This document shows, piece by piece, positions 18,049-33,727 of a stretch of DNA of 64,000 nt. Position numbers and translations under genes: made by a program. This stretch comes from a virus: IMG/VR virus record IMGVR_UViG_3300003886_000001, positions 55,666 through 119,665 of that record; one strand, given 5' to 3'. Each line of letters begins with the position of its first letter. Positions within the stretch are counted from its first letter, which is position 1. The notes under the pieces are model-generated. The model was not told the DNA's origin, ran no database searches, and saw nothing but the letters and a program-made list of their open reading frames with translations.

Positions 18049-18079
18049 ACTATAGGCCTAGACAGAATGAGAAGTATTA
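18049..18079 (-). promoter_or_regulatory. TAATACTTCTCAT-N12-TATAGT promoter with no downstream leaderless ATG
   Basis: TCTCAT 18067-72, -10 at 18049-54. Confidence 0.7.
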
Positions 18080-18342
18080 AAGTCACAGAGGTTGCTAATA
18101 GCTTGGCTAGCTTCTTCCCTCATCTGGTATTCCACAGTGCCCTTTGGGTGGTAGTAGTAGTCCAGGAGAATTTGGGCAAATGGAAGAATAGCCCCCAGTA
18201 TGGCCAGGTCGTCCGTATCGCGCATAATTGCCCATCCTACGGTGTTGCCTGCTGGTATCGTGCGATTGATACACAAGTCGCCCGTTTCCAAATTAAGGCA
18301 TATACTCCGAGACTCCATGGACGGGGTTATTTTAACTTCCAT
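18058..18342 (-). CDS. Paralog family A protein
   Basis: ICLNLETGDL..VGWAI..ILGAILPFAQILLD..AISNLC. Confidence 0.8.
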   Translation of the reverse strand: MEVKITPSMESRSICLNLETGDLCINRTIPAGNTVGWAIMRDTDDLAILGAILPFAQILLDYYYHPKGTVEYQMREEASQAISNLCDFNTSHSV

Positions 18343-18467
18343 AGTCTTCCTTTCTCAAAATGAGACACAGCACCCACGTTAGGCGCTGTGCTCTACGGCA
18401 TCCCCCCGTCGTGCTCTTATCCTATAGTGGGACCCGCACTGTCTAGGCGTACGTCCTAGGTAGCTAT

Positions 18468-18491
18468 ACTATAGGCCGAGTGCGCATGAGA
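18468..18491 (-). promoter_or_regulatory. TCTCAT-N12-TATAGT promoter
   Basis: TCTCAT 18486-91, -10 at 18468-73; shares CCTAGGTAGCTATACTATAGGCC with the 18049 site. Confidence 0.7.
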
Positions 18492-18756
18492 ATGATGAGT
18501 CGCAGAGGTGGATAATTGCCCGGCTAGCGCCCATGTATGCCTGATACGCCAAGCCGTCTCTTGGAACCTCAAGGCAGTCCAGGACAATCTTGGCAAACGG
18601 GGCAACGAGGCGGAGTAGCTCGTCGGTGTCCGTAGTTGCACTGATTGACCACCCGGTGACGTGCTTGCCCCGCACCGTGTAGTCCACGTACAAGTCTCCT
18701 GTCTTATGGTCCAGGCACAGCTTGTCGCCCTTTGACGAGATTACTTTAACGTCCAC
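18469..18756 (-). CDS. Paralog family A protein
   Basis: LCLDHKTGDL..TGWSI..LLRLVAPFAKIVLD..AIIHLC. Confidence 0.8.
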   Translation of the reverse strand: MDVKVISSKGDKLCLDHKTGDLYVDYTVRGKHVTGWSISATTDTDELLRLVAPFAKIVLDCLEVPRDGLAYQAYMGASRAIIHLCDSSFSCALGL

Positions 18757-18759
18757 GCG

Positions 18760-19056
18760 TCACTCCCTTTCCGTGCAAAGATTACTAATTGCCTCAACCG
18801 CTACCTCGTAGACATTTAACTTCACGTTGTCTGGTAAGGGGTTATGGAGGTTATCGTCGTAGTCTAGTATAATTTGGGCGAAGGGCTCGGCGGCCTTCAT
18901 AGTCTCGTGAGCATCACGGTTTAACGGAAGATACCACATAATAACGTCGGCCGACTCCGGCACTTCCGGCGCTACCGGGGCCGCTTGTAGAGTGCCCGTT
19001 ATGAGGTCCAGCCAGAGAACGTGCGGCTTAGCGGGTGGCACTACTTTGAGTTTCAT
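18760..19056 (-). CDS. Paralog family A protein (leaderless)
   Basis: LWLDLITGTL..IMWY..MKAAEPFAQIILD..AISNLC. Confidence 0.8.
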   Translation of the reverse strand: MKLKVVPPAKPHVLWLDLITGTLQAAPVAPEVPESADVIMWYLPLNRDAHETMKAAEPFAQIILDYDDNLHNPLPDNVKLNVYEVAVEAISNLCTERE

Positions 19057-19062
19057 AGCTAG

Positions 19063-19094
19063 AGTATAGGATAAGGACCTGTGAGAAACATTAG
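19063..19094 (-). promoter_or_regulatory. TAATGTTTCTCAC-N12-TATACT leaderless promoter
   Basis: TCTCAC 19081-86, -10 at 19063-68, ATG 19056. Confidence 0.75.
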
Positions 19095-19103
19095 GACCAA
19101 AGA

Positions 19104-19127
19104 CGCCCCCTCTGCTTAGAAGGGGCG
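19104..19127. terminator. GC hairpin, probable terminator
   Basis: CGCCCC..GGGGCG stem. Confidence 0.6.
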
Positions 19128-19209
19128 CTTATGAATGAGCGTCCAGCTTGTGTGTTTATTCGGAAGCTCCCCTTATACTACATCTTCCCCAGGTTAGAAA
19201 GATGAACAC

Positions 19210-19239
19210 TTGACAGGCCGCCACTTAGTGGACTATACT
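19210..19239 (+). promoter_or_regulatory. Canonical leaderless promoter
   Basis: TTGACA-18-TATACT-5-ATG (19245). Confidence 0.75.
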
Positions 19240-19244
19240 TGAGC

Positions 19245-19343
19245 ATGCTTATGGTCATAGTAACCCTGATAGCCGGCGTGGCATTCATCATCGTATCATA
19301 CTTTCTAGGGAGCCAGGATGGCGAAAACGCCGAAGATAATTAG
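19245..19343 (+). CDS. Small single-pass membrane peptide (32 aa)
   Basis: MLMVIVTLIAGVAFIIVSYFLGSQDGENAEDN. Confidence 0.65.
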   Translation: MLMVIVTLIAGVAFIIVSYFLGSQDGENAEDN

Positions 19344-19503
19344 GCGAGAATCCTACCCGTACGGTTACCTGGACCTGTGCGAGGACAGAATACTTGTCCA
19401 TCCCGCTAGCTACGCTACGATAGCCCAGAGGGACAGCCTCATGCAAGACGCTCTACTGTACGCGGCTAACGCTAGCAAGCCCGTTAAGGTGCTTCCAGGC
19501 TAA
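19318..19503 (+). CDS. Hypothetical protein
   Basis: 61 aa; GGGAG RBS. Confidence 0.6.
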   Translation: MAKTPKIIRRESYPYGYLDLCEDRILVHPASYATIAQRDSLMQDALLYAANASKPVKVLPG

Positions 19504-19672
19504 CGCTAGCAAAGGCTTCCTGGGGACTCATACCTTTCAGGAAGCAGTCCTTCACTTCCTGTTCGTGCTGCTTGTACCAACTACTCCATACGGTGCGTGT
19601 AACGGTCCCTACGCGGTCTTGCAGCGTATGGACGACTGTCACAAAGCCTCTGAATTCTCGTGTAGTAAACAT
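19484..19672 (-). CDS. Small phage protein with GMSPxEA motif
   Basis: WSSWYK..CFLKGMSPQEAF; AGGAG RBS. Confidence 0.6.
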   Translation of the reverse strand: MFTTREFRGFVTVVHTLQDRVGTVTRTVWSSWYKQHEQEVKDCFLKGMSPQEAFASVSLEAP

Positions 19673-19676
19673 GCTC

Positions 19677-19844
19677 CTACCTCATCTCCTGTAGCTTTGT
19701 CGACAGGAGATGGATTCTCTCCCGTCGCGCTTGGATGCTTTTCTTCAACTGAGGCGACCTTACCCTTCTCTGCTTGCCTTGCCAGTACAGGTCAGCGTCA
19801 AGCAGGAAAATTCTCAGGCTATCCGCAGTCTCTTTATCAATCAT
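19677..19844 (-). CDS. Small basic protein (55 aa, not in ORF track)
   Basis: MIDKETADSLRIFLLDADLYWQGKQRRVRS...; overlaps stop of upstream gene. Confidence 0.55.
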   Translation of the reverse strand: MIDKETADSLRIFLLDADLYWQGKQRRVRSPQLKKSIQARRERIHLLSTKLQEMR

Positions 19845-20094
19845 AAACAACAGGACCCTTTCCTTCTTCTTTCCGCAGCGTGTTGTACTCCGTTATAGTG
19901 ATGAACACGTCTGGGAGATAAATTGTGGTACCAAGTCGGGGGTCCTCAGGAAGTGCATCCCAACCTCGATACCCTTCATCGTAGTAGGAGACTTCGGCAC
20001 TAGTAGTACCGAGGACTACCACTTGATAGACTGTCCGAGGGTTGCCTTGGGCGTTATGTGTTGCGCAGAACCTCTGGACTGTTCTGGTAGGCAT
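19837..20094 (-). CDS. Paralog family B protein
   Basis: TVQ..RTVYQVV..DALP..IYLPDVFITITEY. Confidence 0.65.
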   Translation of the reverse strand: MPTRTVQRFCATHNAQGNPRTVYQVVVLGTTSAEVSYYDEGYRGWDALPEDPRLGTTIYLPDVFITITEYNTLRKEEGKGPVVYD

Positions 20095-20114
20095 TGTGAG
20101 TATCTCCTTTTCTT

Positions 20115-20138
20115 ATACTAGGCTAGTTTTCCATGAGA
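20115..20138 (-). promoter_or_regulatory. TCTCAT-N12-TAGTAT promoter
   Basis: TCTCAT 20133-38, -10 at 20115-20, then AAGGAG leader. Confidence 0.65.
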
Positions 20139-20464
20139 ATTATGGAAAACGGCACTCGAAACACTATGATGCCATTATCCTTGAGAAGAGTTACTAGGTT
20201 AGCAGCGCCGACGGGATTCATAGAATGCACAATGAAGACTGTATCCTGTAACAGAGAAAAGTCTACTCCTCTCAGGCTGCTATAGACGTCCTCACTTCCC
20301 AGGTCATGGTCAAGGAACACGACGTCAGCCTCACCTAGCAGTCCCGTATCAAAGACGGTAGAATGCACAACGTCGCCTCTGATACCGTGACGGCGCGCCC
20401 AAGCACGAATAGTGCCTACCCGGCAAGTATCATCGTCAATAATCAAAGCCTTTGACATACTCAT
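20123..20464 (-). CDS. Cyclic-phosphate-processing receiver (cREC)-like domain protein
   Basis: LIIDDD..VVFLDHDLG..IVHSMNPVGA. Confidence 0.8.
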   Translation of the reverse strand: MSMSKALIIDDDTCRVGTIRAWARRHGIRGDVVHSTVFDTGLLGEADVVFLDHDLGSEDVYSSLRGVDFSLLQDTVFIVHSMNPVGAANLVTLLKDNGIIVFRVPFSIILMEN

Positions 20465-20888
20465 AGAAGCTTGGCGTCCCTTCGGTCACAGTCTCGTTGT
20501 GGTAGTCAAGCCGAGCCTCACACTGGAAGCCGTACAAGTCGGCGTCCCGCTCTGTTGGCAACTTACGGTAGACGGCGGCATCGTGTACAGTCTTTGCAGC
20601 GTCAAACGAGTCTCTTGCCGTTGGCATATTGAAGTGTTGCCATACGTGCCGGGCCTCGTGCGCAATGATGACAACTACGTCCCGGACGTCAGAGCATTGC
20701 AACAGGTTAAGAAACAGGTCGGCGTGTAACGTCTCGGGGGAAGGGTATGAGACTACTACCGAGGACGACACTATGGCGCCGGTTACGGACGGGTCATGGT
20801 AAGCATGGAGCGTAAACTCTACGTCCTCAAGGTGTAAGTCCGAGATGACGTCCTGGAAAATGCTGGTAGCAACTACCTTCAATTCCAT
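20436..20888 (-). CDS. HExxH zincin-like metallopeptidase (leaderless)
   Basis: IIAHEARHVWQ..PTERDAD. Confidence 0.75.
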   Translation of the reverse strand: MELKVVATSIFQDVISDLHLEDVEFTLHAYHDPSVTGAIVSSSVVVSYPSPETLHADLFLNLLQCSDVRDVVVIIAHEARHVWQHFNMPTARDSFDAAKTVHDAAVYRKLPTERDADLYGFQCEARLDYHNETVTEGTPSFYEYVKGFDY

Positions 20889-20893
20889 GCTTC

Positions 20894-20924
20894 ATGGTAT
20901 GCCACCTTAGCATGAGAAAGATTA
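20894..20924 (-). promoter_or_regulatory. TAATCTTTCTCAT-N12-TACCAT leaderless promoter
   Basis: TCTCAT 20912-17, -10 at 20894-99, ATG 20888. Confidence 0.75.
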
Positions 20925-20926
20925 GA

Positions 20927-20952
20927 ATAACCCCGCCAATTGACGGGGTTAT
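20927..20952 (-). terminator. Intrinsic terminator
   Basis: ATAACCCC..GGGGTTAT stem immediately after stop of 20959. Confidence 0.7.
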
Positions 20953-20958
20953 CTGGAC

Positions 20959-21141
20959 TTACCGGGTTTCCCATGACATGGCGGAGTGTAGCATATACTC
21001 CCGTTCCGTCACTTCCAGCGGGTAGAGTGTTACTGCCTGCCGGGGAAGGTTAGGGAGGTTCCGATACACGCGGCGTTCTCCATCCTCTGTTACCACGTAG
21101 AGCGTCTTTCTTGGGGTATAAACAGCCTGGACAATTGTCAT
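20959..21141 (-). CDS. Paralog family B protein
   Basis: IVQ..LYVV..YRNLPNLP..VTLYPLEVTEREY. Confidence 0.7.
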   Translation of the reverse strand: MTIVQAVYTPRKTLYVVTEDGERRVYRNLPNLPRQAVTLYPLEVTEREYMLHSAMSWETR

Positions 21142-21142
21142 G

Positions 21143-21403
21143 TTACTTCCACCTCAGTATTGGGTGTTCTCCACGGTCTTGAGCCTTCTCCAAGCGTTCC
21201 TGGAAGTCATATTCTTCTTCCGTTATGGACAGCGGGGCTAGCAAGATGATTCTTCCGCCCCTTAATGGGATATCTTCCAACCTAGTATAAACTCGGTGGT
21301 CCATGAACACACACTCCGTCCTTAGGAGTCTCCTGCGCTTCACAGTGCGGACCAGATACAGTATCCCTCTATTCTCATTGTGGACGTGCTGTACTATTAC
21401 CAT
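21143..21403 (-). CDS. Paralog family B protein
   Basis: IVQ..LYLV..YTRLEDIP..ILLAPLSITEEEY. Confidence 0.7.
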   Translation of the reverse strand: MVIVQHVHNENRGILYLVRTVKRRRLLRTECVFMDHRVYTRLEDIPLRGGRIILLAPLSITEEEYDFQERLEKAQDRGEHPILRWK

Positions 21404-21669
21404 TTTTCCATCTTGGACAATAGACTCTTGAGGACGGGGTTGCGGTTGGACTCCAATTCGTTTTCCAAGTCGGAGTATTCATTCCACGTTACACGGTAGC
21501 TTGGAAGCTCGATGAAGTCTGTTTGGGGGAACCGATAAAACACCTCCTCAAGGGTCCGGCACAAGTAACGCTTTGCTGCCGGGATATTCTCCACAGTGTC
21601 TGCTTCTAGGACCAGGTAGAGCCGTTGGGTCTGCTCACCTTCATAGAAAAGACATTGTATCAGTCTCAT
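21397..21669 (-). CDS. Paralog family B protein
   Basis: LIQ..LYLV..RTLEEV..IELPSYRVTWNEY; start 21669 after GGAAGGGG. Confidence 0.7.
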   Translation of the reverse strand: MRLIQCLFYEGEQTQRLYLVLEADTVENIPAAKRYLCRTLEEVFYRFPQTDFIELPSYRVTWNEYSDLENELESNRNPVLKSLLSKMEKW

Positions 21670-21901
21670 ACCGTATCCCCCTTCCATGTTGGGCGATTAT
21701 CCGTAGGAACCGGCCCGAAGCTACCGTTAGTGGCGGCAGGGTTATTTTTTCGGCGGTCGGGTAGGCTCTTTCAACATCTTCCAGCATCTTGAACAGTCTA
21801 ACCCTCGCCTTGTCCACCCCGATAATGCCAACGCCGGGTACTGTGACATACACGGTCCGGTCGCCTCTGATTGTGTCCAGCCTCTGTACGAGACAGTACA
21901 T
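21641..21901 (-). CDS. Paralog family B protein
   Basis: LVQ..TVYV..FKMLEDV..ITLPPLTV. Confidence 0.7.
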   Translation of the reverse strand: MYCLVQRLDTIRGDRTVYVTVPGVGIIGVDKARVRLFKMLEDVERAYPTAEKITLPPLTVASGRFLRIIAQHGRGIRYETDTMSFL

Positions 21902-22071
21902 TATGACCCGAGGAAGCCGTGCCGCATGGCGATGCGCTTCTCTATCATGCGCAGTTTCGCTTGGCGGTGCGGGTCATGCTTGGGCACTCGCGCCCGCAAT
22001 TGCCACAATTCGGTTTCCGTCAAGATGGCTACCAGTTTACTCCACCGGTCAAATTCGGATTCTTTACGCAT
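21901..22071 (-). CDS. Small basic helical protein (56 aa)
   Basis: MRKESEFDRWSKL...; start 22071 coupled to stop of upstream ORF. Confidence 0.6.
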   Translation of the reverse strand: MRKESEFDRWSKLVAILTETELWQLRARVPKHDPHRQAKLRMIEKRIAMRHGFLGS

Positions 22072-22228
22072 GGCGCAGGTCCTCGTAGTCCGCGTCCGTA
22101 AGGAAGACGTCCGCCGTAAGGTCATAGTAGCAGTGTTCGCCGGTTGACGGTGTCCAGCCGTACAGTACGCGGTGTCCATTGACGGTCATAATCGGTTCTC
22201 CTTGTGAGGGGCGCCAGTCTGTTTCCAT
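22064..22228 (-). CDS. Small protein (54 aa, leaderless, not in ORF track)
   Basis: METDWRPSQGEPIMTVNGHRVLYGWTPSTGEHCYYDLTADVFLTDADYEDLRHA. Confidence 0.75.
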   Translation of the reverse strand: METDWRPSQGEPIMTVNGHRVLYGWTPSTGEHCYYDLTADVFLTDADYEDLRHA

Positions 22229-22233
22229 ACTTC

Positions 22234-22262
22234 AAAATATCACATAAAGGGCCGGCTGTCAA
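22234..22262 (-). promoter_or_regulatory. Canonical leaderless promoter
   Basis: TTGACA-17-(TG)TATTTT-5-ATG. Confidence 0.8.
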
Positions 22263-22393
22263 GAGCCGGCCACTAATCGGTGTACTATCACCTATGTGCC
22301 CCCTGCTAGTGTATGCACGTCGTCCGCTACGCATAGCCTGTGATATGTCCAGCCGGTTGTGTCTCGGTGGTCAAATTCTCAGGCCAGAGAACG

Positions 22394-22642
22394 TCATTCG
22401 TACGCTAAGGCCAATTCTGGCCTAGGCGTTGTCCAGGGCCGTACCACGTCGCGTCTAGTCTCCGCGTGACAGCACTTGCACTCCCGCCAATGTACCAATT
22501 CATAGTCAATTACCCCATCGAAGTCTGGCCATTTTTCGACCTGGTTAATCGCATTTTCCGTTGTGTCTGCAATAATGGGCACGTTGGTATACCCTTCTCC
22601 GCTCATCCACAGATTCCCGATAATCGTTGCACGGTACATCAT
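22394..22642 (-). CDS. Hypothetical protein
   Basis: 82 aa; AAAGGG RBS. Confidence 0.65.
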   Translation of the reverse strand: MMYRATIIGNLWMSGEGYTNVPIIADTTENAINQVEKWPDFDGVIDYELVHWRECKCCHAETRRDVVRPWTTPRPELALAYE

Positions 22643-22654
22643 CCACGCCCTTTC

Positions 22655-22762
22655 TTAGTCACACAACGCTTCATAGTCTGCCCAGTCTTCACACTCTGCT
22701 TCCGAGTCGTAGGTGTCCGGGATAAACTCGTCACTTTGGCGTTCCGTAAGAAAGTCATCCAT
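22655..22762 (-). CDS. Highly acidic mini-protein (35 aa, leaderless, not in ORF track)
   Basis: MDDFLTERQSDEFIPDTYDSEAECEDWADYEALCD. Confidence 0.75.
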   Translation of the reverse strand: MDDFLTERQSDEFIPDTYDSEAECEDWADYEALCD

Positions 22763-22767
22763 AAAGT

Positions 22768-22796
22768 AGTCTACCCCTTCCCGTCCACGCTGTCAA
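22768..22796 (-). promoter_or_regulatory. Canonical leaderless promoter
   Basis: TTGACA-17-TAGACT-5-ATG. Confidence 0.85.
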
Positions 22797-23023
22797 CTAT
22801 CGTCCCATGCATGGGATAGCTGAATCAGATATTCTGGCTCTACTACATGCAACGGCTGCAATTCTACGATATCGTATCCGCCGGCTTTGGTCGGCAAGTC
22901 CGCCACGTTGTATTGTACGGTGCCCTTATCCTTCCGCAAGTCCTCGAACGAGTCTCCGGTCCTCACTAGATACAAGAATTCGGAGTCTGTCGTCCAGATA
23001 GTCTGTACAAGCGCTAGCTTCAT
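22793..23023 (-). CDS. Paralog family B protein
   Basis: LVQ..LYLV..YNVADLP..VELQPLHVVEPEY. Confidence 0.7.
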   Translation of the reverse strand: MKLALVQTIWTTDSEFLYLVRTGDSFEDLRKDKGTVQYNVADLPTKAGGYDIVELQPLHVVEPEYLIQLSHAWDDS

Positions 23024-23025
23024 TT

Positions 23026-23367
23026 TTACTCCTCCGCGTACTTGCTACGGTCAAGCGTACGGTGGGCGTCACCGTGCCGGTTAATCCATACCGTGCGGAC
23101 CAGCCTATCCTCGGGGTTAATGACAAGTACCAAGTCCTGCTTGCCCTGGTATGGCTGCCGGTAGACCGCTTTGACTACTTTCTGCCCTTCTACTTCCGCT
23201 TCGACCAGGACAGCCTTCCGGCTGTCAAACACTGCCGGCAGGTCAATATGGCCGTACTGGTCGGTAGTTGCAGCCTGTCGCGCATGGGCGCTGTAGCGCA
23301 ACAGTGCCGAAAATTGCAGGTTACGGGCCGGGGCCGGGAAGAAAACGTCTTTGTGATAAAGGGCCAT
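23026..23367 (-). CDS. Conserved phage protein, possible BECR/DUF4258-like RNase fold (leaderless)
   Basis: YSAHA..DLVLVI..VRTVWIN..HRTLD. Confidence 0.7.
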   Translation of the reverse strand: MALYHKDVFFPAPARNLQFSALLRYSAHARQAATTDQYGHIDLPAVFDSRKAVLVEAEVEGQKVVKAVYRQPYQGKQDLVLVINPEDRLVRTVWINRHGDAHRTLDRSKYAEE

Positions 23368-23372
23368 AACTG

Positions 23373-23400
23373 ATTATAGCACTCTGACAGCCAGTGTCAA
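23373..23400 (-). promoter_or_regulatory. Canonical leaderless promoter
   Basis: TTGACA-16-TATAAT-5-ATG. Confidence 0.8.
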
Positions 23401-23708
23401 GTCCGCATAATCGTGACCGGCATACCCTCCCGGTATCGCCGGCTCATTCTGTACAAGTAAGATGGAGTCCCGGAGTACGACTAAGCGTGTCTTGCCATAC
23501 CGCCCCATGATGCTCTTTGCTAGGGATTCATGGAGTATCACGTCATACTCGATGCACGCTTACCACTACGTAGCCCAGGCCCTTTGCTAGTGCCGCGATG
23601 GACTCTACATTCCATTCTTTACCGCGACACATAAGCATGGCGTACTTTCCATTCTTCTCCACCTTGACAGCGTATGCCATGCCCCTCCCGACCGGAATTG
23701 TGAAAACT

Positions 23709-24026
23709 TTATCGAGCGTATCCCCACAGGGTAAGATGTTCTTTCAGCACAGGCCCTACTCTGGACGACAGGGTAGAGTCGTCGGGCAAGGTAGAAAACT
23801 CCCAGTCTGTGCCACCTACAGCTTCTAAGGCTTTGGCCAAGGCTCGCGCCTTCTTTTCACTTGGGATGTTGTCTATGATGCGGCGACCGGACGCGCAGTG
23901 ACTAATTTCCCATCCACGAATACCGCTTAAATTGTGATGGACTGCTAGGTGTTCGGTCAACACGGCTTCTATTTCTTCCGGTTTCCTCTTGCCACCGTAC
24001 ATCGGCCGGAAAGTCCCGGTTACCAT
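23709..24026 (-). CDS. Hypothetical protein
   Basis: LAVH..WEISHCASG; coupled to upstream ORF. Confidence 0.65.
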   Translation of the reverse strand: MVTGTFRPMYGGKRKPEEIEAVLTEHLAVHHNLSGIRGWEISHCASGRRIIDNIPSEKKARALAKALEAVGGTDWEFSTLPDDSTLSSRVGPVLKEHLTLWGYAR

Positions 24027-24196
24027 CCCGCGTCCTTGAGCGCACGCTTGGCGGCTGTCACAGGGCGAGTGTGCGACGCGTAGTCGTCCGCGTACAGGTA
24101 GTCCGGCAGGTCCTCGGCTGCGAGGCCGGCAATGCTTTCCATCGCGTCATTCACTTGTTTCATCCATTGTTTATAGGTCATTTTCTTGGAATCCAT
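24020..24196 (-). CDS. DUF5419-like small protein (58 aa, leaderless, not in ORF track)
   Basis: MTYKQWMKQVNDAMESIAGLAAEDLPDYLYADDY..PVTAAKRAL. Confidence 0.7.
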   Translation of the reverse strand: MDSKKMTYKQWMKQVNDAMESIAGLAAEDLPDYLYADDYASHTRPVTAAKRALKDAGW

Positions 24197-24201
24197 ACCA
24201 G

Positions 24202-24232
24202 ACTATACCTGGCCCTTCTATGAGAATCATTA
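24202..24232 (-). promoter_or_regulatory. TAATGATTCTCAT-N12-TATAGT leaderless promoter
   Basis: TCTCAT 24220-25, -10 at 24202-07, ATG 24196. Confidence 0.75.
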
Positions 24233-24233
24233 G

Positions 24234-24267
24234 AAAAGACGCCCCTTGTGTAAGGGGCGCCTGTCTT
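24234..24267 (-). terminator. Intrinsic terminator
   Basis: CGCCCCTT/AAGGGGCG stem plus A-tract. Confidence 0.75.
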
Positions 24268-24275
24268 GTGTGCGG

Positions 24276-24623
24276 TTACTTGACGGTTATCCGAACGGTG
24301 GCGTCGGCCGTGAACGGAAGCGTGGCCTGTACGTCCGCCGGCAGTTTCTTGATACCGGCAGCCTTGACGGTGAAGATGTCGGACGGATTCAACTTGAGCG
24401 CCCGCTGGACGCCCAACACTTCGCGCACGCGGTACAGGCGACGTTCAACTTCGGTGAGGGTCACGGTGTGACCGTTTGCGGTGTACTTGCCGCCCACGTC
24501 CCACCGCGCCTTCGCTTCGACCTTGAGAACGTTTGCGGCAGTCTTGGCGGCCGCTTCGGCGGCGACAGACTCGGCAAGGGCGTCGATAAGCTGCTCATCC
24601 GTGAGGTTCTTGAGTGCTTCCAT
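24276..24623 (-). CDS. Hypothetical protein (leaderless, start 24623)
   Basis: MEALKNLTDEQLIDAL...; TTGCAT-17-TATTTT-5-ATG. Confidence 0.75.
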   Translation of the reverse strand: MEALKNLTDEQLIDALAESVAAEAAAKTAANVLKVEAKARWDVGGKYTANGHTVTLTEVERRLYRVREVLGVQRALKLNPSDIFTVKAAGIKKLPADVQATLPFTADATVRITVK

Positions 24624-24628
24624 ATCTG

Positions 24629-24657
24629 AAAATATCATAAATCGGGCCGTGATGCAA
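24629..24657 (-). promoter_or_regulatory. Sigma70-type leaderless promoter
   Basis: TTGCAT 24652-57, TGA-TATTTT 24629-34. Confidence 0.75.
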
Positions 24658-24713
24658 GGGGGTAGGGCCTTAATCTGTTTCTCATGTTATTCTCATGCTA
24701 GATAGTTTTCACG

Positions 24714-24744
24714 AAAGAAAAAGACGGGCCATAACGGCCCGTCT
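24714..24744 (-). terminator. Intrinsic terminator
   Basis: AGACGGGCC/GGCCCGTCT stem plus A-tract. Confidence 0.8.
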
Positions 24745-24758
24745 GCTTAGGCTTAGGC

Positions 24759-24980
24759 TTAGACTCGCCCTGCCGGGTACGCCGCCATGTACTCCACGTC
24801 TACCGCTGAGCAGAGAATCGGGCTAGTGCCACGGCGAATAGTGGCCTTGAGAAGCCGGGCCAGCCGACAGGCGACGGGCCACGCCGCGCCGGAAGCGGGG
24901 CCGTAGAAGCACACACGCGGACGAGAACCGCGCGTTATGATAGTTTCGTACCCGAGGATATAGACTCTGTAGTCACGCAT
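24759..24980 (-). CDS. Small basic protein
   Basis: 73 aa; GGAGG RBS; overlaps stop of upstream ORF. Confidence 0.6.
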   Translation of the reverse strand: MRDYRVYILGYETIITRGSRPRVCFYGPASGAAWPVACRLARLLKATIRRGTSPILCSAVDVEYMAAYPAGRV

Positions 24981-25125
24981 TCTCTGTCCTCCGCGCTGCT
25001 TCTATGGGCGTCATGCCCGCCTGGTATTCTTGCCAGTAGGGGAACGCCCCGAAGGCTTGGACCGTGAATCCCGTATGTTCGACCAGCGCTTCATTCACTT
25101 TCTGAATCCACCGTTCGAATCCCAT
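24973..25125 (-). CDS. DUF5419-like small protein (50 aa, leaderless, not in ORF track)
   Basis: MGFERWIQKVNEALVEHTG..FPYWQEYQAGMTPIEAARR. Confidence 0.7.
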   Translation of the reverse strand: MGFERWIQKVNEALVEHTGFTVQAFGAFPYWQEYQAGMTPIEAARRTENA

Positions 25126-25130
25126 ATCTG

Positions 25131-25159
25131 ACGGTATCATAAATCCGGCCGGTTAGCAA
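25131..25159 (-). promoter_or_regulatory. Sigma70-type leaderless promoter
   Basis: TTGCTA-17-TACCGT-5-ATG; near-identical to the 24629-24657 promoter. Confidence 0.75.
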
Positions 25160-25190
25160 GTCCCTAACCTTAATCATATTCTCATCATAG

Positions 25191-25218
25191 AAAAGGGCGG
25201 GTAATTAGCCCGCCCCTT
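25191..25218 (-). terminator. Intrinsic terminator
   Basis: GGGCGGG/CCCGCCC stem plus A-tract. Confidence 0.75.
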
Positions 25219-25222
25219 AGTC

Positions 25223-25720
25223 TCAGAATCGCTTCGCGCATACAGGGCCGATACCTGCTTCAATCGAAACCGGGTCGGTGAGCGTGCGGCCACAGATACC
25301 GCATACTCCTAATTCGTGGCCGTAGCGCGCGGCTGCTACCTTAGGGTCGGCCAGAACGCTTTTCAGCACGTCGCAGTAGGCGCCGGCGTAGAATCGCTTC
25401 GGAGTCTGTGCCCCAAGTTTGCGGTAGTCGTCGGAAGTCTGTGCTTTGACGAATATCCACCCGGCCCACCGTCCGCGGTCGACCTTGTCCACCTTGAGGA
25501 ACCGCATGATGCCCTGAGAATCCGGCGCGGCATAATGCCCGCTTGGAATACCTGACAGGTCAATGGTAGGGGCGGTTACCCGCAGCGTGAACAGGCGCTT
25601 AATCTCACGGGAAGCATCCGAGACACTAGGACTGTTCCCGAGGAAGGCGCGGGCGGAGCCTTGACAAGAACGCTCGCCGGCCAGCTTCATAATGAACGAT
25701 ACCTGCTTAGTCGTTGCCAT
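25223..25720 (-). CDS. DUF6011-like Zn-finger protein (leaderless)
   Basis: GVCGICGRTLTDPVSIEAGIGPVC; N-terminal ATTKQVSFI. Confidence 0.85.
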   Translation of the reverse strand: MATTKQVSFIMKLAGERSCQGSARAFLGNSPSVSDASREIKRLFTLRVTAPTIDLSGIPSGHYAAPDSQGIMRFLKVDKVDRGRWAGWIFVKAQTSDDYRKLGAQTPKRFYAGAYCDVLKSVLADPKVAAARYGHELGVCGICGRTLTDPVSIEAGIGPVCAKRF

Positions 25721-25726
25721 ACAGGT

Positions 25727-25755
25727 AACGTATCACGTGGGACGCCGTCCGTCAA
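25727..25755 (-). promoter_or_regulatory. Canonical leaderless promoter
   Basis: TTGACG-17-TACGTT-6-ATG. Confidence 0.8.
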
Positions 25756-25765
25756 GAGCCTGCAC

Positions 25766-26275
25766 CTTAATCATTCTCTCATGTTCTACTCACTAATCTT
25801 TCTCTCATACTAAGGCCATACATCCACATATACATAGCTTAATCCTCTCATAAAGACAGGTTATTCCACATCTACCTCTCATGTACACAGTATTTTCTCA
25901 TGATTCTTTCATGATTCTTTCATAATGTACTCATACTCGATGATTAACATGAGAAGATGAGAGCTTTTTCACATTTAGAGCTTATTTTTCTCTCATATTC
26001 TCATCTGCGGCCCGTCTTTTTCTCATGATAATTTGGTGATAATGCATATTACCTTCATGTTTCACATACTTCTGGCCCATATTATCATCAGAATCTCATG
26101 AGACTCTCATATATCCCTAGTTTCTCTAATTCTTCTCTCATACTTTCCTCATCTTAGACTCACGTACTTAGTATACTCTCATGTAAATGGTTATATTCTC
26201 ATGTTTCACATGAAATTATCATCGTTTTCTCATAACCCCTGGGGTTTGAAAGCAAATCGGAGTCCCTGTTCTCAT
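25766..26275. repeat. Dense array of TCTCAT hexamers in a non-coding region
   Basis: 18 exact copies counted (15 on plus, 3 on minus) between 25777 and 26275. Confidence 0.9.
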
Positions 26276-26339
26276 AATCGGCCGCCCTCCCCCTTTATCA
26301 CCCCTAGGGGTATTTTTCAAACAAAACGGACTAAGCCCT

Positions 26340-26432
26340 CTATAAAAACCCCAAATTTAAAAATAAATAAACTTTTAGAAAAAAGGGAGTTAATAACCAA
26401 CTATAAAAACCCCAAATTTAAAAATAAATAAA
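26340..26432 (+). repeat. Perfect 32-bp AT-rich direct repeat
   Basis: CTATAAAAACCCCAAATTTAAAAATAAATAAA at 26340-26371 and 26401-26432. Confidence 0.95.
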
Positions 26433-26580
26433 ATCTGGGGAAGACACCTAAAAACTCAAGTTTAAAAATCTGGGAAGGAAACCCCCAAATCTAGGAAGAT
26501 TCTGGAAAGAAAAAATAAAATCTAGGGAGGAAAATTGTCTGGGGATAGAAATTCTGTAGAGATAATCTGGGAAGGAAACC
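26431..26580 (+). repeat. AATCT(G/A)GG iteron-like repeats
   Basis: 17-bp AATCTGGGAAGGAAACC at 26467 and 26564, plus partial copies near 26431, 26488 and 26518. Confidence 0.85.
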
Positions 26581-26619
26581 TAATAATGAAAAACATGGTG
26601 AGTAAAAAATCATAAAATG

Positions 26620-26640
26620 AAAATCCCCCTTTCGGGGGAA
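26620..26640 (-). terminator. Intrinsic terminator
   Basis: TCCCCC/GGGGGA stem, GAAA loop on minus strand, U-tract. Confidence 0.8.
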
Positions 26641-26643
26641 TTG

Positions 26644-26895
26644 TTAGAACTTGTTTTCCTCATCATCGTGGCAGCGATGCCAACGAGGTAATCTAAACCC
26701 ATGATAGGTCTTCGGATGGAGAGCATCATAATACTCATTGGCTAGTTGTCTAATATCTGTAGCATAATTTTGCAGTAGAATTAGGTCATAGGCAGTCATA
26801 TCCTCCATGTCGAACTTCGTATTTCTCAATTTAAATTCAGTTAATGTACCCCGTATACTAGATAATGCAGTTGCTAGTTCTTCAGCTTTTATCAT
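26644..26895 (-). CDS. Paralog family C helical protein
   Basis: MIKAEEL..YYDALHPKTYHGFRLP. Confidence 0.75.
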   Translation of the reverse strand: MIKAEELATALSSIRGTLTEFKLRNTKFDMEDMTAYDLILLQNYATDIRQLANEYYDALHPKTYHGFRLPRWHRCHDDEENKF

Positions 26896-26907
26896 TGACT
26901 TTCCTTT

Positions 26908-27135
26908 CTAATCATGAAAACTAGGTAGTCTAAAATGGTGATAATTGTCCGGATGTAGTCCATCATAATATTCGTGTATCAATCCCTTAGTCTCTGTTGA
27001 AATATTTTGTAGTACAATTAAACCTTCAGCACCAATATCCTCTAAATCAAAATGGGTATTACCTCTATTCTTTAGGTCTTGAAGTTGTGTTTTTATGTTT
27101 AGTAGAACGGTAAATATTTCTTCATATTTTATCAT
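26908..27135 (-). CDS. Paralog family C helical protein
   Basis: MIKYEEI..YYDGLHPDNYHHFRLP. Confidence 0.75.
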   Translation of the reverse strand: MIKYEEIFTVLLNIKTQLQDLKNRGNTHFDLEDIGAEGLIVLQNISTETKGLIHEYYDGLHPDNYHHFRLPSFHD

Positions 27136-27266
27136 TGATTATCCTTTCTAACTTGTTGGATGAGGGCTTCAAAAAATGAAACTAAAAAGTCTACGTCGTC
27201 TTCATCCACATCTTTGAGTTTGATGTTTATGTCCTTTAGGGCGGCCAATAAATCCTCCTTTATCAT
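27132..27266 (-). CDS. Probable family C protein (44 aa, not in ORF track)
   Basis: MIKEDLLAALKDINIKLKDVDEDDVDFL...; ATGA overlap. Confidence 0.6.
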   Translation of the reverse strand: MIKEDLLAALKDINIKLKDVDEDDVDFLVSFFEALIQQVRKDNQ

Positions 27267-27268
27267 GT

Positions 27269-27490
27269 CTAAACAGCCGTTTGTTCTTCATCCACGGGGG
27301 AGAAGTTATCGGGCTGTAATAGCTCTGATTGTATTTCTTCAAGGGATGAGATTATGTAACTTACCTCTTCGCGGAGACTAGAAAATTCTTTTATAGTCAT
27401 TGCTACTTCTAGGTATTCTACTATGGATATATCAGCTATAAGCTCTGTTATAGCGTCCAATTTTGCTTCTAGAGTTTTGAAGTTATACAT
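27269..27490 (-). CDS. Acidic helical protein, possible family C
   Basis: Heptad pattern LEAKLDAITELIADI. Confidence 0.6.
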   Translation of the reverse strand: MYNFKTLEAKLDAITELIADISIVEYLEVAMTIKEFSSLREEVSYIISSLEEIQSELLQPDNFSPVDEEQTAV

Positions 27491-27804
27491 TTTTTAGTCA
27501 ACACCTCATGCATTTCTTGTACCTTGTCTGCTAACCTTGGGTACTGAGCCGGGGATAAATGCTTCATGGCCTTTAGTGTACTGTCCAGTTGCTGGTTTAC
27601 GGATTCTAGGTATAAAAGTTTATCTATATTACCTAGGATGTCTTTTACATAGTAGTGAACATCGTACGCCTCTGTTTGTAAAGTCACGAGGTCTGCCTCT
27701 GGCAAGTCTGGTATGACAATCTCCTGTAACACTTTTGTTGCCGACTCTAGTTTTTTCTGTATTTCAGTTTTATCGGACATGTAAGCGGACATTGTGTCAG
27801 ACAT
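27469..27804 (-). CDS. Helical protein, possible family C
   Basis: IQKKLESATKVLQEI..DLPEADL. Confidence 0.65.
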   Translation of the reverse strand: MSDTMSAYMSDKTEIQKKLESATKVLQEIVIPDLPEADLVTLQTEAYDVHYYVKDILGNIDKLLYLESVNQQLDSTLKAMKHLSPAQYPRLADKVQEMHEVLTKKCITSKL

Positions 27805-27964
27805 TTTCTTTAAGTCCTAAATAAAAGTTGTCTATAATTTCTTTAAGTTTTTCTACTCTTGCTAAAAGGCCCGGATTACTTTGTACCTGAGCGTTACCTA
27901 AATCCTTTAGAGCAGTTTCGGCGAATGTTAATTTTGCGCTTATCGTTGCATAATCGTAATGCAT
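27797..27964 (-). CDS. Small helical protein (55 aa, not in ORF track)
   Basis: MHYDYATISAKLTFAETALKDL..PGLLARVEKLKEII. Confidence 0.6.
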   Translation of the reverse strand: MHYDYATISAKLTFAETALKDLGNAQVQSNPGLLARVEKLKEIIDNFYLGLKENV

Positions 27965-27965
27965 T

Positions 27966-28253
27966 TTAGTCCTTTCTAACTCTGTCGAGAAATGCAGAAT
28001 AAGCTACTTCTAAGGCTTTTCCGAGGCTAGGGGTAAGCGTAGCACTATATTCAAGTATTTCATCTAAATCCCCAATGTCTACACAATCCCTTTGAAACTC
28101 TTCCGGGCTAATAAGGATGTTGTCTTGGATTACCCACATGGGTCCTTCAACGTAGCTGCCATCCGGATTATTAGCCTTATCAATTATGCGGCGGTCACCT
28201 TCGGATAGATATTCTCCATGTAGGTAACTACTACCACATCTAATTAATCTCAT
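27966..28253 (-). CDS. Hypothetical protein
   Basis: 95 aa; AAGGGG RBS. Confidence 0.65.
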   Translation of the reverse strand: MRLIRCGSSYLHGEYLSEGDRRIIDKANNPDGSYVEGPMWVIQDNILISPEEFQRDCVDIGDLDEILEYSATLTPSLGKALEVAYSAFLDRVRKD

Positions 28254-28392
28254 ATTTTCCCTTCAGTTAATGCTTTGGTGGTGAACACTCTTATTTTACC
28301 GGTTTTTTCTCTCATTCTTACAATATCGTCAAAGTCACCCTCTAACTCCCAATCCAATATGTCTAAGAATAGCGTCTAGGGTGTTTTCTAGT

Positions 28393-28716
28393 TTAGTAGT
28401 GAAGTCGGACATATCTACCCGTAAAATAATTAACGGCCTCAAAGCTACAATAGACGGTCAGGCTGGTAAACGAGTCTCCGTTGAGCATATAAAGAAATAC
28501 ATTCTTAGGGTCACGGGTTAGGTAGACTGTACCCTCTAGGTATAGATTGTTAGTGCAGGTAGCGTCTATTGTCACACGTTGCGGAATATTTACACTAACT
28601 CCATAAAGTTCAATTGCACTACTTCCTATGACATCATAAGAATTGGCAACCGGTTGAACGATAACGGTGCATCCTCCCAAAATGAAGATGCCTAATATAA
28701 AGACCAGCTTCCACAT
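28393..28716 (-). CDS. Putative lipoprotein
   Basis: Signal peptide with lipobox-like LGGC; AAGGAGG RBS. Confidence 0.7.
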   Translation of the reverse strand: MWKLVFILGIFILGGCTVIVQPVANSYDVIGSSAIELYGVSVNIPQRVTIDATCTNNLYLEGTVYLTRDPKNVFLYMLNGDSFTSLTVYCSFEAVNYFTGRYVRLHY

Positions 28717-28924: not shown

Positions 28925-31900
28925 ATGAGAGGATACCCCCAGAAAAATTTGGAAGCTCTTTATCTGATGGAGATAGAACGTCAGAATCTTATTCCTTATA
29001 GTGAGTCTCCAATTTCGGTGGGAAGCGGTAATGGAAGTACTGCGACCGTTGTATACCAATCCAATGAAGTAGATTGGAACGGTAAGAAACGAGTATGGAA
29101 ATTAACTGCCATCTCTAATTATGCAGCCCGCTCATGGGGTTACACCGACTATAACTTAAGTGGAAATTTTACCTACAGGATAAGACTAAAAAATGTAGAT
29201 TCGCCACAAACAAAGCTTCTAGTATATAATTATTTCGGGGGGACGACAGGCACCTATACTGTAGTTATAACGTGGTCCGGAGCAATACCAACTATCACAT
29301 CAGGTACCGGAACAATAACTAACCTGGGAAACGATTGGTATGAATTTGTATTTACAGTGTCTGGAATTAATGCAGGAAATACCGGTCTTAGGTTAGACCT
29401 AGAAGTTGACCTAGTCACCGGAACTAAATCTATCTTTTTTGCAGATATACAAATGGTAGCCGGTACCACCCTACCACCATATGTCCCTACCACCCATAAA
29501 CAACTTCTATATGATTACACCGGACAGGGTAATGATGGTGTTCTGGGTACTGCTGATAAATCCGCTATTAACCCAGTAGGGGAGTATTTATGGCTATCGG
29601 GCACTACAAATAATTACATCTCTACCCCAAATAATACTGGTGGCACTGTTTATTGGGATATTACACATCTTGATGGTACGGTAACAACTGGTTCTACTAT
29701 TAATAAAACTATCTCTGTTGGAGTCGGACTACGAGCTTCAATCGTAGATATAAAGGTATATAGTGATGCCGAAAAAACAATTTTAATAGCTAATTTAAAT
29801 ATACCCAGAGATGCTCCTGGTGATGTCACACAACTATATAGTAAAGCTACTGGAGAATTATGGACTATTTCCACCACAACTAGTGGGGTTTCTTCGGCCC
29901 CAGTTTTTACCTCAGGGGGATTACTTCTCAATGGTGTAGGGCAGTTTGCTACAGCTACAATACCTGGATTAGATATTTCAGGGGTAACGGTCTCTGCACA
30001 TGCTAAGTTTGATTCAACTGCTACTGCCAATGGATACGCTGTTGGACTTGGCGGTGCCGGAGGAGACCACTCGTTACTCTCAGCTCGGGTTAACACCAAC
30101 GGATGGATGGACTTGTTTGTAAGAGACACAGCGGACACATTGTCGTCAACTAATGTGTTGAGTGCGTATACACAGGATGTAGACTCTTATATAACTCTTA
30201 GAACAAACACTACGTCAACCACCCTAGACTTAAATGGTGCGGAAATATCTACACTCACGCCACCGACGGCTCCTTTCTTGTACCAAAGAATCGTCTTGGG
30301 TGGCGCGTCCGATTCTCCGGCTTCACAGTCATTTAAAGGGACACTGGGAGTTGCTGCTGTGTATTCCAGAGAACTCTCTGCTACAGAGTCGTATCAAACG
30401 TATTCCGCTGCTAAAGATTTGTTAAATAAACGAGGCATAACTTTAGCTAATACTCCTCCAGTGAATAATATTAAAGCTGCTGCCACAGACTTAGGAGTTA
30501 CGCTAGCCAGCGGTTTTGAAGCGTGGGCCTCCAGTGTTTGGACGGCCGGAATGAGCTGGACCGTGTTAAGCCAGCCCACCACAGGCATCGAGCTGGACTT
30601 GCGAGGTAACGGCGCTTGCGCGGCGTGGTGGGGGGACGGCAATACCGACGCTTACGTCCTGCTGAACACCAGCGCTGATACGGTGTTGGCTCACACGTAC
30701 GCTTCGGCCGTCACTAGACCGGTAGTGGTGCTAGGGGACGTCACTAGGTGGAGCGGTCCGGCTTCGGTGCTCACGAGTTACGGAACCAAAACGCAGTACC
30801 TCCCAGCTTCCCTCGCACTCCTAAACGTACAGGGTAGCAATACTTTGTCTGGGGACGTGCAGTACCTCCCGGCGAACCTCACGTATCTATACGTAACGGG
30901 TAGCAATACCTTAAGCGGAGATGTAGTCGGGTTGCCTAGGGGTATGACTAGTTTTAATCTAGGTGGTAATAACACCATTACTGGCGATGTAGTTGGGTTG
31001 CCAACAACTCTTACTGTTCTCAATCTTGGGAATAATAACTTGACCGGGAGTATTATAAATCTTCCTAGGGCGTTGATAACTATAACTGTGGGTGGTAATA
31101 TTGCCTTAAGTGGAGATGTTAAGAATCTACCCACGGGTGTTCAAATAGTGGTACTTAACGGTCCTGTTGCTATAATCAGTACCACTACAATACTGCCAAC
31201 GCCCCTATCGGACATCAAAATCTCCAACATGACTACTGCCAGCGTCGATGATGTCCTGGAAGCCATGGCCGCGAATGTGCTGGACACGAAACCCCTCTCT
31301 AATCGCATCATTACCCTCAATGGTGGTACTGCTCAACCGCGCAGCACCGCTTCCGACGCCGCCGTGACCACCCTCACGACCGCAACGCCGCCGTACACGG
31401 TAACTACCATTCCCCCAACCAACCTAATTACCGGAAGTGACCTCATTTCTGACCCTGTTGGTACCGTTGGTTCTTCCACGGTTTCTCATGCAACTGAAAC
31501 TGTAACTGGATTGGGCTCAATAAATGTGGTAACATGGGTACAGGCGACTACGGCGGATATCATTTCTGTCACCAGCAACAGAACGTTTAATGTTACCCCC
31601 GGTGAAGCTTTAAATATTAGCATGTATATAAACAGTACATTGGCGTCCTCAGCCCGGCTTCAGGCAATTGTTACCGTTGATACTGTGGACTATTATTTGC
31701 AGGCAGACGGAGTAACTTGGAGCACTACGGCGTGGGAGTGGGAACCAGATGTTGGCACATTAAATACCTGGAATCGCTCTGTTACTGTAACTAATACCAT
31801 TCCAGCAGGCACGTCAGCTAGTTTGCACTTCTTATCCATGTATCGTAATACCGGTAGCTTTACCTTTAAGTTAGCAGCCTGGCAGGTAACTGAAGGCACA

Positions 31901-32893: not shown

Positions 32894-33717
32894 TTGTTCC
32901 CGATTTTATTTATAAAAAGGCCGAATGGGAGGATTTACCAACCCAAGCCAACTCCAATTACCCTAAGATTGTCATCGAAGACACCGGGGCAAGAGTAGTA
33001 AATTCGGGGTCAGTCACATTAACTACTGGGGACAAGTTCTTTTTGCAGCCACCAGACAGTAATTTTGGAACTGTATACAACTATTTGACCTATTCTAATA
33101 AGGATGGTGCATATGTGATTCGATATGTAAATAGTGGAGAGCCATGGTCATCTCCAACTAGCTCAAATGGCCAACAACTATCGTTTACCTACGGTACATC
33201 AATGCCTTTTACCGGGGTTACTCAACTCGATTACTTGGCAAACGTTGTAAGTGATTTCTGGTTTAGTGCAGGTAGTACGGTAGTAACTACGGACGGAACT
33301 CATATCTTTATCTTTTCCAATCTCAACAATTCCTCTCCAGTATATGCTCTAAATTTAGATGGTACTATTGCTTGGAAAAGAACATTACCTACCTCAGTTA
33401 TCTCTGTCTTTTCTATTAAGGACGGGGTCTTTTATATTGATACCTCAGTCACCAATACCCCTAATTCTGGGGACATGGCTATGAATCTAGTTAAACTAAA
33501 TACCACGGATGGTACTGACCATTATACTATGAATGTAACTACCCTACCCTCTGGAACTACAATAGACGAGAATACAAGGTCGATGTTTTACTATTTTGCA
33601 GATGGAACTATTATTTTGTACGCAAATACTATCGGCCACTTTGCCGTCGATGTAGTAAACAAACTAGTAACTAATTTAACCTCATCATCTACTTCGGATT
33701 TACTTGCTATAGTATAG
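32890..33717 (+). CDS. Beta-rich protein with PQQ-like propeller blades
   Basis: VYALNLDGTIAWKR, LVKLNTTDG. Confidence 0.6.
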   Translation: MIVPDFIYKKAEWEDLPTQANSNYPKIVIEDTGARVVNSGSVTLTTGDKFFLQPPDSNFGTVYNYLTYSNKDGAYVIRYVNSGEPWSSPTSSNGQQLSFTYGTSMPFTGVTQLDYLANVVSDFWFSAGSTVVTTDGTHIFIFSNLNNSSPVYALNLDGTIAWKRTLPTSVISVFSIKDGVFYIDTSVTNTPNSGDMAMNLVKLNTTDGTDHYTMNVTTLPSGTTIDENTRSMFYYFADGTIILYANTIGHFAVDVVNKLVTNLTSSSTSDLLAIV

Positions 33718-33727
33718 GAGTAAAGAT

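Follow-up and report, generated by a model that had tools for sequence, protein, structure and literature searches.

A conserved array of TCTCAT promoter boxes at the head of the early region of an uncultured phage: a candidate docking platform beside an origin-like element

What could a phage gain from packing 18 copies of one hexamer, the core of a promoter motif used elsewhere in its genome, into about 500 bp of apparently gene-free DNA? The locus that raises this question lies in a linear IMG/VR contig of 119,665 bp (termed G000; CheckV completeness 72%), and positions given without a genome name refer to the window, i.e. the whole 64,000-nucleotide stretch that was analysed, which forms the last 64 kb of the contig. 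Because its portal, large terminase, DNA polymerase A and UvsX-like recombinase are 28–46% identical to those of Thermus phage phiYS40/TMA, G000 is, as far as these proteins tell, an uncultured large phage distantly related to the phiYS40 group; the portal is of the type known from SPO1/Twort-like phages. We compared it with G001 (IMGVR_UViG_3300009702_000014; 201,951 bp, 97% complete, portal 76% identical to that of G000), which is syntenic but reversed and circularly permuted, with G003 (194 kb, 97% complete, portal 60% identical), with G007 (190 kb, 100% complete), and with further metagenome contigs, namely Logan L056 and L049–L053 and contig L030 (Ga0194110_10000302). No near-identical DNA to the locus was found in the phage collection searched.

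A sequence-only reading of the window had listed 18 TCTCAT/ATGAGA positions at this locus, together with TTTCAT variants and a palindrome at 26094. Every listed position was exact on re-checking; the variants occur at 25907 and 25918, and the palindrome is TCTCATGAGA.

Positions 25777–26275, no strand assigned: TCTCAT array with 18 exact boxes plus TTTCAT/CTCAT variants, 15 boxes on the plus strand and 3 on the minus strand.

The minus-strand sites lie at 25949, 25957 and 26098, and the extended consensus of the array is yTCTCAT(G/A)(A/T). About 0.46 sites would be expected in the array, in line with the earlier estimate of well under one copy by chance. The locus had also been described as lacking a credible open reading frame, and those of at least 50 aa are limited to 25661–25813 and 26201–26431, both on the plus strand, the latter interrupted by indels in the sequence of the relative. 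One outcome named in advance as speaking against a special array was a similar frequency of TCTCAT in other AT-rich intergenic DNA of this genome. This is not the case: the whole contig contains 119 sites, and its second-densest 510-bp window holds 4. An unbiased scan of all hexamers placed ATGAGA/TCTCAT by far first for clustering in G000; TCTCAT is also the top clustered hexamer in G001 (26 sites vs 0.5 expected), and no other word is strongly enriched in the two arrays alike (combined log10 P for TCTCAT ~ −57).

The array had been placed at a junction between the early region and AT-richer DNA, and this step is real, with a GC content of 0.547 at 24001–26000 and 0.364 at 26001–28000 and with synteny in G001. 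Since homologues of the genes on both sides of the junction flank the array of G001, an assembly chimera could be ruled out. The early block as a whole (from about −8000 to 25760 in window coordinates) has a GC content of 0.45–0.55 vs 0.39–0.42 in the remaining genome, and a likewise contrast is seen in G001, G003, and G007.

The sites are not scattered at random along the helix. Neighbouring boxes in G000 are separated by 8, 11, 19–22, 26, 31, 41–43, 73, or 95 bp, and the dominant spacings in the arrays of G000 and G001 are 11, 20–22, 31–32, and 41–43 bp. A Rayleigh analysis gave a peak at 10.4 bp for G000 (p ~ 0.002 vs random placement) and at 10.1 bp for G001, where phasing is marginal (p ~ 0.06). 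Most boxes are repeated in one sense, i.e. 15/18 in G000 and 22/26 in G001. Tandem Repeats Finder (TRF) returned at most two 11-bp runs of 2.4 copies each, with irregular spacing, which makes the array a dispersed homotypic cluster rather than a tandem repeat; a simple tandem repeat or CRISPR-like array was rejected, given that neither a regular unit nor a regular spacing is present. Other words are concentrated in the same DNA, some of them within an inverted repeat.

Positions 26021–26103, no strand assigned: imperfect inverted repeat within the array, with 23-nt arms that are 83% complementary and TGATAAT/ATTATCA heptamers.

Among the 37 copies of TGATAAT/ATTATCA in the contig, 4 fall within 200 bp here (26026, 26037, 26087, and 26221), and 3 of the 4 genome copies of TTTCACAT lie inside the array (25967, 26060, and 26204), which suggests a multi-protein hub in G000. 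TGATAAT corresponds to a Fur-like half site and is locally enriched in the array. Two exact copies of TCATGTTTCACAT occur within 26021–26222.

To which promoters does the box belong? In G000, the pattern TCTCAT-N12-TAnnnT occurs 23 times, compared with 0–9 occurrences at each other spacing from N8 to N17, and the peak at N12 recurs in three relatives, with 35 sites in G001, 26 in G003, and 12 in G007. Most N12 copies have a weaker second box 9 bp upstream (TCT(A/C)AT-N3-TCTCAT), and most N12 promoters have an ATG 5–6 nt past the −10 element, which gives leaderless mRNAs. The sequence-only reading had seen this geometry in none of the array copies it checked, and indeed none of the 18 array sites is in the genome-wide TCTCAT-N12-TAnnnT list; one site, at 26177, has TATTCT at N11. 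Searching the literature for a link between TCTCAT and phage promoters gave unrelated matches only. Related contigs show variations on this arrangement. In L030, a more distant relative, TCTCAT stands 21 nt, not 12, upstream of the −10 element (TCTCAT-N21-TAnnnT), often with an inverted ATGAGA 27 nt further upstream, right after a terminator hairpin, and L049–L053 have TCTCAT-N3-TCTCAT-N12-TAnnnT promoters with Shine-Dalgarno leaders.

A second promoter class, also leaderless, occupies the GC-rich block and has the canonical form TTGACA-N16-18-TAnnnT. Its member closest to the array serves the first early gene.

Positions 25726–25782, minus strand: early promoter of canonical form that serves the first early gene; four early promoters of G001 have the same geometry.
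Positions 25223–25720, minus strand: first early gene (165 aa), whose product ends in a DUF6011 domain (phrog_636); not present in G001.

This promoter reads ATGAGA(25782-25777)-N5-ATTAAG-N10-TTGACG-N17-TACGTT-N6-ATG(25720) and yields a leaderless mRNA, so the leftmost array site (25777–25782) is part of its upstream element. The composite element ATGAGA-N5-ATTAAG-N9/10-TTGACA-N17-TAnnnT-N6-ATG is found exactly at four early promoters of G001 (35,974–40,100) and with one change at several more; G000 has two further copies (24669 and 25169), and G003 has the variant ATGAGA-N6-TTAAG before one early promoter (185,535–185,610). From these upstream elements it follows, on sequence grounds, that canonical leaderless early promoters use the TCTCAT box as well, in reversed orientation at about −60, and the boxes of the array share this orientation. 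One hexamer thereby occurs in three arrangements, namely as the −30 box of one promoter class, as the reversed box at about −60 of the early promoters, and in a promoter-less array.

The array might then be nothing but a multi-copy upstream element, enhancing or silencing in cis the adjacent first early promoter only. The G000 array does start at the upstream element of the 25720-gene promoter, and its sites share that element's orientation. We nevertheless consider this improbable: in G001, the array and the early promoters are set apart by a divergent gene of 86 aa, its terminator, and about 250 bp of further DNA, and yet the array still adjoins the conserved block described below; moreover, 18–26 sites over 500–600 bp exceed the need of any upstream element. 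Close to this divergent gene, which in G001 lies between array and early block, the operator-like sequence GCTCGTGAAAAyTGTCACAAaGCGGC occurs twice (34,470–34,500 and 35,030–35,065).

Which protein could read the box? Searches for MotA and AsiA homologues gave no match at E ≤ 1 (PF09158 in G000 and G001; PF09010 and PF09114 in G000, G001, and G003), the genomes searched being 72% (G000) and 97% (G001 and G003) complete, and a search for a sigma-70-type gene gave no Sigma70_r2 match. TCTCAT promoters with no recognisable MotA, AsiA, or sigma gene therefore imply an unknown DNA-binding regulator. Among 66 ORFs of the interval 443–36182, mostly from the early region, none matched an HTH, RHH, wHTH, or other DNA-binding Pfam family. 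The neighbours of the array include no Rep-, DnaA-, or helicase-loader-like family, as the flanking genes belong to DUF6011 or are of unassigned function, and the DUF6011 gene and the 83-aa right-hand gene had no useful relatives in viral contigs.

Two conserved early proteins were considered individually. The product of 23026–23367 (minus strand; 113 aa) is the only early protein common to all TCTCAT phages, being conserved at 43–68% identity in every TCTCAT-using relative found, with invariant His, Asp, Glu, and Arg residues. Its AlphaFold model has a pLDDT of 93.8, and the fold matches are weak and limited to RelE/BrnT-type toxins. It is not an evident DNA binder and was rejected as box factor; it may be a host-shutoff ribonuclease. 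The 149-aa early protein encoded at 36272–36721 is conserved in G001, G003, and G007 and has no PHROG match; alignment by eye leaves an impression that suggests a nucleotide-binding-type domain rather than a regulator. It is also possible that the box factor is a host protein.

Conservation of the array bears on whether it is a selected feature. The G001 array comprises 26 sites in 620 bp, 22 in the same sense as in G000, at a syntenic place between the GC-richer early block and the homologues of window positions 28393–28716, in a genome where the background outside the array is about 3 sites per 4 kb. In an alignment of both arrays, conservation is confined to the boxes and the right-hand ~75 nt, and the spacers do not align. 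Boxes kept while spacers diverge are the pattern that purifying selection on the boxes alone would leave, and on this comparative evidence the array is selected and not a chance product. With 26 boxes at the same spot in a 202-kb relative, the locus therefore looks like a selected protein-docking platform.

The same data bear on the idea that the array lacks a function of its own, consisting of leftover promoter halves of lost early genes, or that it is transcribed into a non-coding RNA whose UCUCAU/AUGAGA repeats act as an RNA sponge. In favour of such views, the early regions of the clade are hypervariable and dense in TCTCAT promoters (L049 has about 6 sites per kb), and a small hairpin with a T-run lies at 26236–26250. 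Both are very unlikely in our estimation. A site spacing of 8–11 bp is too tight for former promoters, and box number and orientation are kept in G001 despite saturated spacers. As for an RNA, helical phasing is a property of DNA, and no promoter for such a transcript, no Rfam match, and no covariation were found.

Between the array and the A-rich DNA to its right lies a block that is also found in more distant relatives.

Positions 26236–26294, no strand assigned: conserved non-coding block of about 60 nt, CCCCTGGGGTTT.AAAGCAAA.CGGAGTCCC ... CGGCCGCCCTCCCCC.

A TCTCAT box lies between its two halves, which read GGGGGAGGGCGG ... GGGACTCCgGTTTGcTTTcAAACCCCAGGGG in the sense of the early genes. 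The block is kept in five lineages, i.e. G000, G001 (33,660–33,745), G003 (184,896–184,975), G007 (~178,750–178,830), and L056 (~215–290), the neighbouring proteins being only 40–70% identical, and it is always found at the head of the GC-rich early block. A DNA-pattern search with the block returned only G001, G003, and G007. It showed no Rfam match and no convincing RNA fold or covariation, and is read as a DNA-level site.

The distribution of the array is narrower than that of the block. No TCTCAT array is present in G003 (at most 4 sites per 600 bp) or in G007, though the block is there; in L056, the block is followed directly by six ATGAGA boxes in 150 bp and then by an early promoter. 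Across lineages the number of boxes at the locus varies as 0, 3, 6, 18, and 26. No array was seen within the 18 kb of L030 examined, and no hexamer array comparable to that of G000 was found in phiYS40. Given that G003 and G007 retain the block without the array, the array is lineage-specific, and by these comparisons it is an add-on or expansion beside an older conserved cis element. The block, older than the array on the same sequence evidence, is probably the key, more fundamental cis element of the region. The locus tends to attract short repeats that differ from lineage to lineage: G007 has other ones in place of the boxes (TCTGAGAA four times and CACCGAGCACCTGC three times), and L049–L053 start within a different GC-rich short-repeat array, TAGCGGCACGGGC in tandem with TAGCAGCGACCGG variants (positions 1–300), which lies upstream of the early genes although the promoters of these contigs are rich in TCTCAT. 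An AGGACC hexamer cluster in G003 (31,190–31,650) was rejected as an iteron array because it is a collagen-like (Gly-X-Y) coding repeat.

On its other side, the block is followed by unusual DNA.

Positions 26318–26617, no strand assigned: A-rich, easily melted stretch, defined by strand bias and duplex stability.
Positions 26622–26642, minus strand: intrinsic terminator hairpin that ends the leftward operon 26644–28716.

The A-rich flank has the largest A–T strand bias of any 300-bp window of G000 (+89, ~5 sd), and the homologous flank of G001 likewise holds that genome's extreme. Of all 100-bp windows in G000, only three are less stable as duplexes than the one that starts at 26338, and the flank of G001 contains the least stable 100- and 200-bp duplexes of the whole genome. 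At window sizes of 200 and 300 bp, the stability minima of the G003 genome start about 350–400 bp from the block and overlap both the preceding gene's end and the AT-rich DNA that adjoins the block. Within the G000 flank, a 32-bp sequence is repeated exactly in direct orientation at 26340 and 26401 (61 bp apart), and 26340–26590 holds about six repeats resembling AATCTGGGAAGGAAAC (also given as AATCTGGGAAGG-like); they form a second repeat family, not common to G001. Words of the flank resembling TATAAAAAC were rejected as a genome-wide promoter motif. The G001 array includes a perfect DnaA box, TGTGGATAA, as well as TGTGGAT, perfect boxes numbering only 2 in 202 kb; in G000, DnaA boxes are weak variants or near-matches only. 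Cumulative GC skew of the genome follows gene orientation only.

A region rich in repeats, free of genes, and placed where the early block begins could also mark a genome end used in packaging or DNA entry, where the block would be a terminase or end-processing site bordering a terminal repeat with the early genes and the array a docking region. SPO1/Twort-like phages carry their early genes in long terminal repeats, and G000 has a portal of that type. All early genes read away from the gene-free region, the block is kept in several lineages, as is usual for a cleavage or recognition site, and differing short-repeat arrays stand at the early-region head of relatives. We consider a genome end unlikely, because no contig of G000, G001, G003, or G007 ends at this locus, the ends of G007 join at another place, a G-run/C-run hairpin, the map of G001 is a circular permutation of that of G000, and the large terminase gene lies about 57 kb from the array. 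The common start of five Logan contigs was rejected as a physical end: the shared start consists of 30 nt (k−1) of pure 13-mer tandem repeat and is therefore an assembly break. The YS40_Isch record is circular and hence uninformative on termini. Long G-run/C-run hairpins (e.g. G12-19 AACCG C9-13) recur in the early regions of the clade, namely at the G007 contig ends, in L030 (80–135), in G003 (184,740), and at the start of L056; the G007 assembly breaks at one of them.

Taken together, the array is well supported as a real, selected feature, and we conclude that it is probably a functional multi-site binding platform for the box factor, on account of its enrichment, its conservation under spacer turnover, its phasing, and its identity with the promoter box. 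The sequence-only reading had proposed a high-density platform for the factor behind the promoter motif, and this is supported in part and indirectly, through the promoter class, the conservation in G001, and the phasing. Our inferences are the binding of a protein, its identity with the one at the promoters, and any effect on replication. About 18 boxes (26 in G001), mostly head-to-tail on one face of the helix, would be offered to the TCTCAT-box protein, and many factor molecules would assemble side by side into one nucleoprotein complex.

Our preferred, still tentative, explanation is that this docking platform helps an adjacent origin-like element. The array is physically tied to the conserved block and to strand-biased, meltable DNA at the head of the early block, rather than to a single promoter, and the bound factor would open the adjacent A-rich unwinding region or recruit replication proteins there. 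In support, the array is constantly coupled to the block and to the most meltable, strand-biased DNA, and relatives carry other short repeats in the same region, resembling iteron turnover; the phasing, the extra motif clusters of the G000 array, the perfect DnaA box seen in G001 only, and the T4 precedent of a factor box beside an unwinding element point the same way. The surroundings thus look origin-like at the sequence level: like an iteron origin, the locus combines a phased cluster of same-sense sites with an adjacent AT-rich unwinding region. No cognate initiator gene was recognised next to or containing the repeats. Any such help is dispensable, since G003 and G007, which are near-complete (97–100%) and have TCTCAT promoters and the block, have no array; the array is therefore inessential for replication. 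No promoter reading from the array into the A-rich DNA was found, so an R-loop origin of the T4 type is unsupported.

Alternatively, the platform might act as a factor sink and timer. The boxes would soak up the first ~20 factor molecules per genome, and cooperative binding would create a sharp threshold that delays or sharpens the switch from the early to the TCTCAT (−30 box) class, or would nucleate early-promoter silencing. This role is doubtful, and nearly as likely as help at an origin. As expected of a decoy locus in the manner of P1 incA or datA, the boxes are identical to the promoter box and have no −10 element; array sites (18 and 26) are of the same order as N12 promoters (23 and 35); they share the orientation and the flanks of the early upstream element (C/T at −1 and (C/T)TAAT at N5); L056 has an intermediate cluster of 6 sites; and an accessory array, missing in G003 and G007, fits a tuning device rather than an essential site. 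However, a sink does not account for why the array always accompanies the block and the A-rich DNA (G000, G001, and L056), and the extra TGATAAT and TTTCACAT motifs of G000 point to a multi-protein hub. Besides, G003 has 26 N12 promoters and no sink, and array size is therefore untied to promoter number.

Spanning both roles, we would advance, with reserve, that a MotA-like but unrelated factor uses the array as a decoy or loading pad, which either times the early-to-middle switch or couples the factor to replication at an origin element. Examples of decoy-site timers and of origins assisted by transcription factors come mostly from synthetic biology or from viruses of eukaryotes; if true, either role would be the first natural phage example, and the locus offers a natural test case for both. 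More broadly, the analysis reveals a transcription system in an uncultured clade of 160–200 kb phages related to Thermus phage phiYS40, for which the array is an obvious bait for the box-binding protein. The conserved block merits a separate study.

Several known systems resemble the locus in part. The Omega (pSM19035) heptads and the ParG/ParR centromere-operator arrays consist of contiguous units at the promoters of partition operons. Like the array, they have short units (4–11 bp) in mixed orientation, there bound cooperatively by a small global regulator, whereas here the units are separated by variable numbers of whole helical turns and no partition genes were seen. The short-repeat arrays of T7 (SRL/SRR) flank its terminal repeat, and the injection-stop region of T5 is repeat-rich; the array locus is similarly gene-free, repeat-rich, and at the head of the early genes, but none of the G000, G001, G003, and G007 contigs ends there.

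Iteron systems, such as lambda ori, P1 oriR/incA, and P4 ori/crr, use repeats of 17–22 bp at regular spacing that are read by a dedicated initiator encoded nearby, and extra iterons, as in P1 incA, can act purely via titration or handcuffing. Phased direct repeats of a short protein site beside an AT-rich region are common to these origins and our locus; in contrast to iterons, the box is 6–7 bp long, is irregularly spaced (n × 10.5), serves as a promoter element genome-wide, and has no evident initiator gene. In SV40 (T-antigen pentamers) and EBV (the oriP family of repeats), one protein controls early transcription and also acts at the origin. Their multiple copies of a short site, with an AT tract next to them, recall the array, by analogy of architecture only, those being eukaryotic viruses with unrelated proteins, and no helicase-initiator is known here.

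Phage T4 provides the nearest parallel in mechanism. In its MotA-dependent middle promoters, a box placed 12 ± 1 bp from a host-type −10 element replaces the −35 element (PMC2988021), and at oriF and oriG such a middle promoter beside an A+T-rich unwinding element makes an origin (PMC3016281). Likewise, the TCTCAT box is found near −30, 12 bp upstream of a TAnnnT −10 element, and copies of this promoter box adjoin the most meltable DNA. The differences from oriF and oriG are that 18–26 boxes with no −10 element take the place of one complete promoter and that no transcript is predicted to enter the unwinding region; in addition, the box sequence differs from that of T4 and no MotA/AsiA homologue was found. 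With no MotA, AsiA, or sigma-70-type gene, the likeness to T4 is therefore one of mechanism and not of family. Homotypic site clusters, iterons, and decoy loci are already known kinds of element; what is new is a large, conserved, phased array of promoter boxes, with a box factor unrelated to MotA, next to a deeply conserved block.
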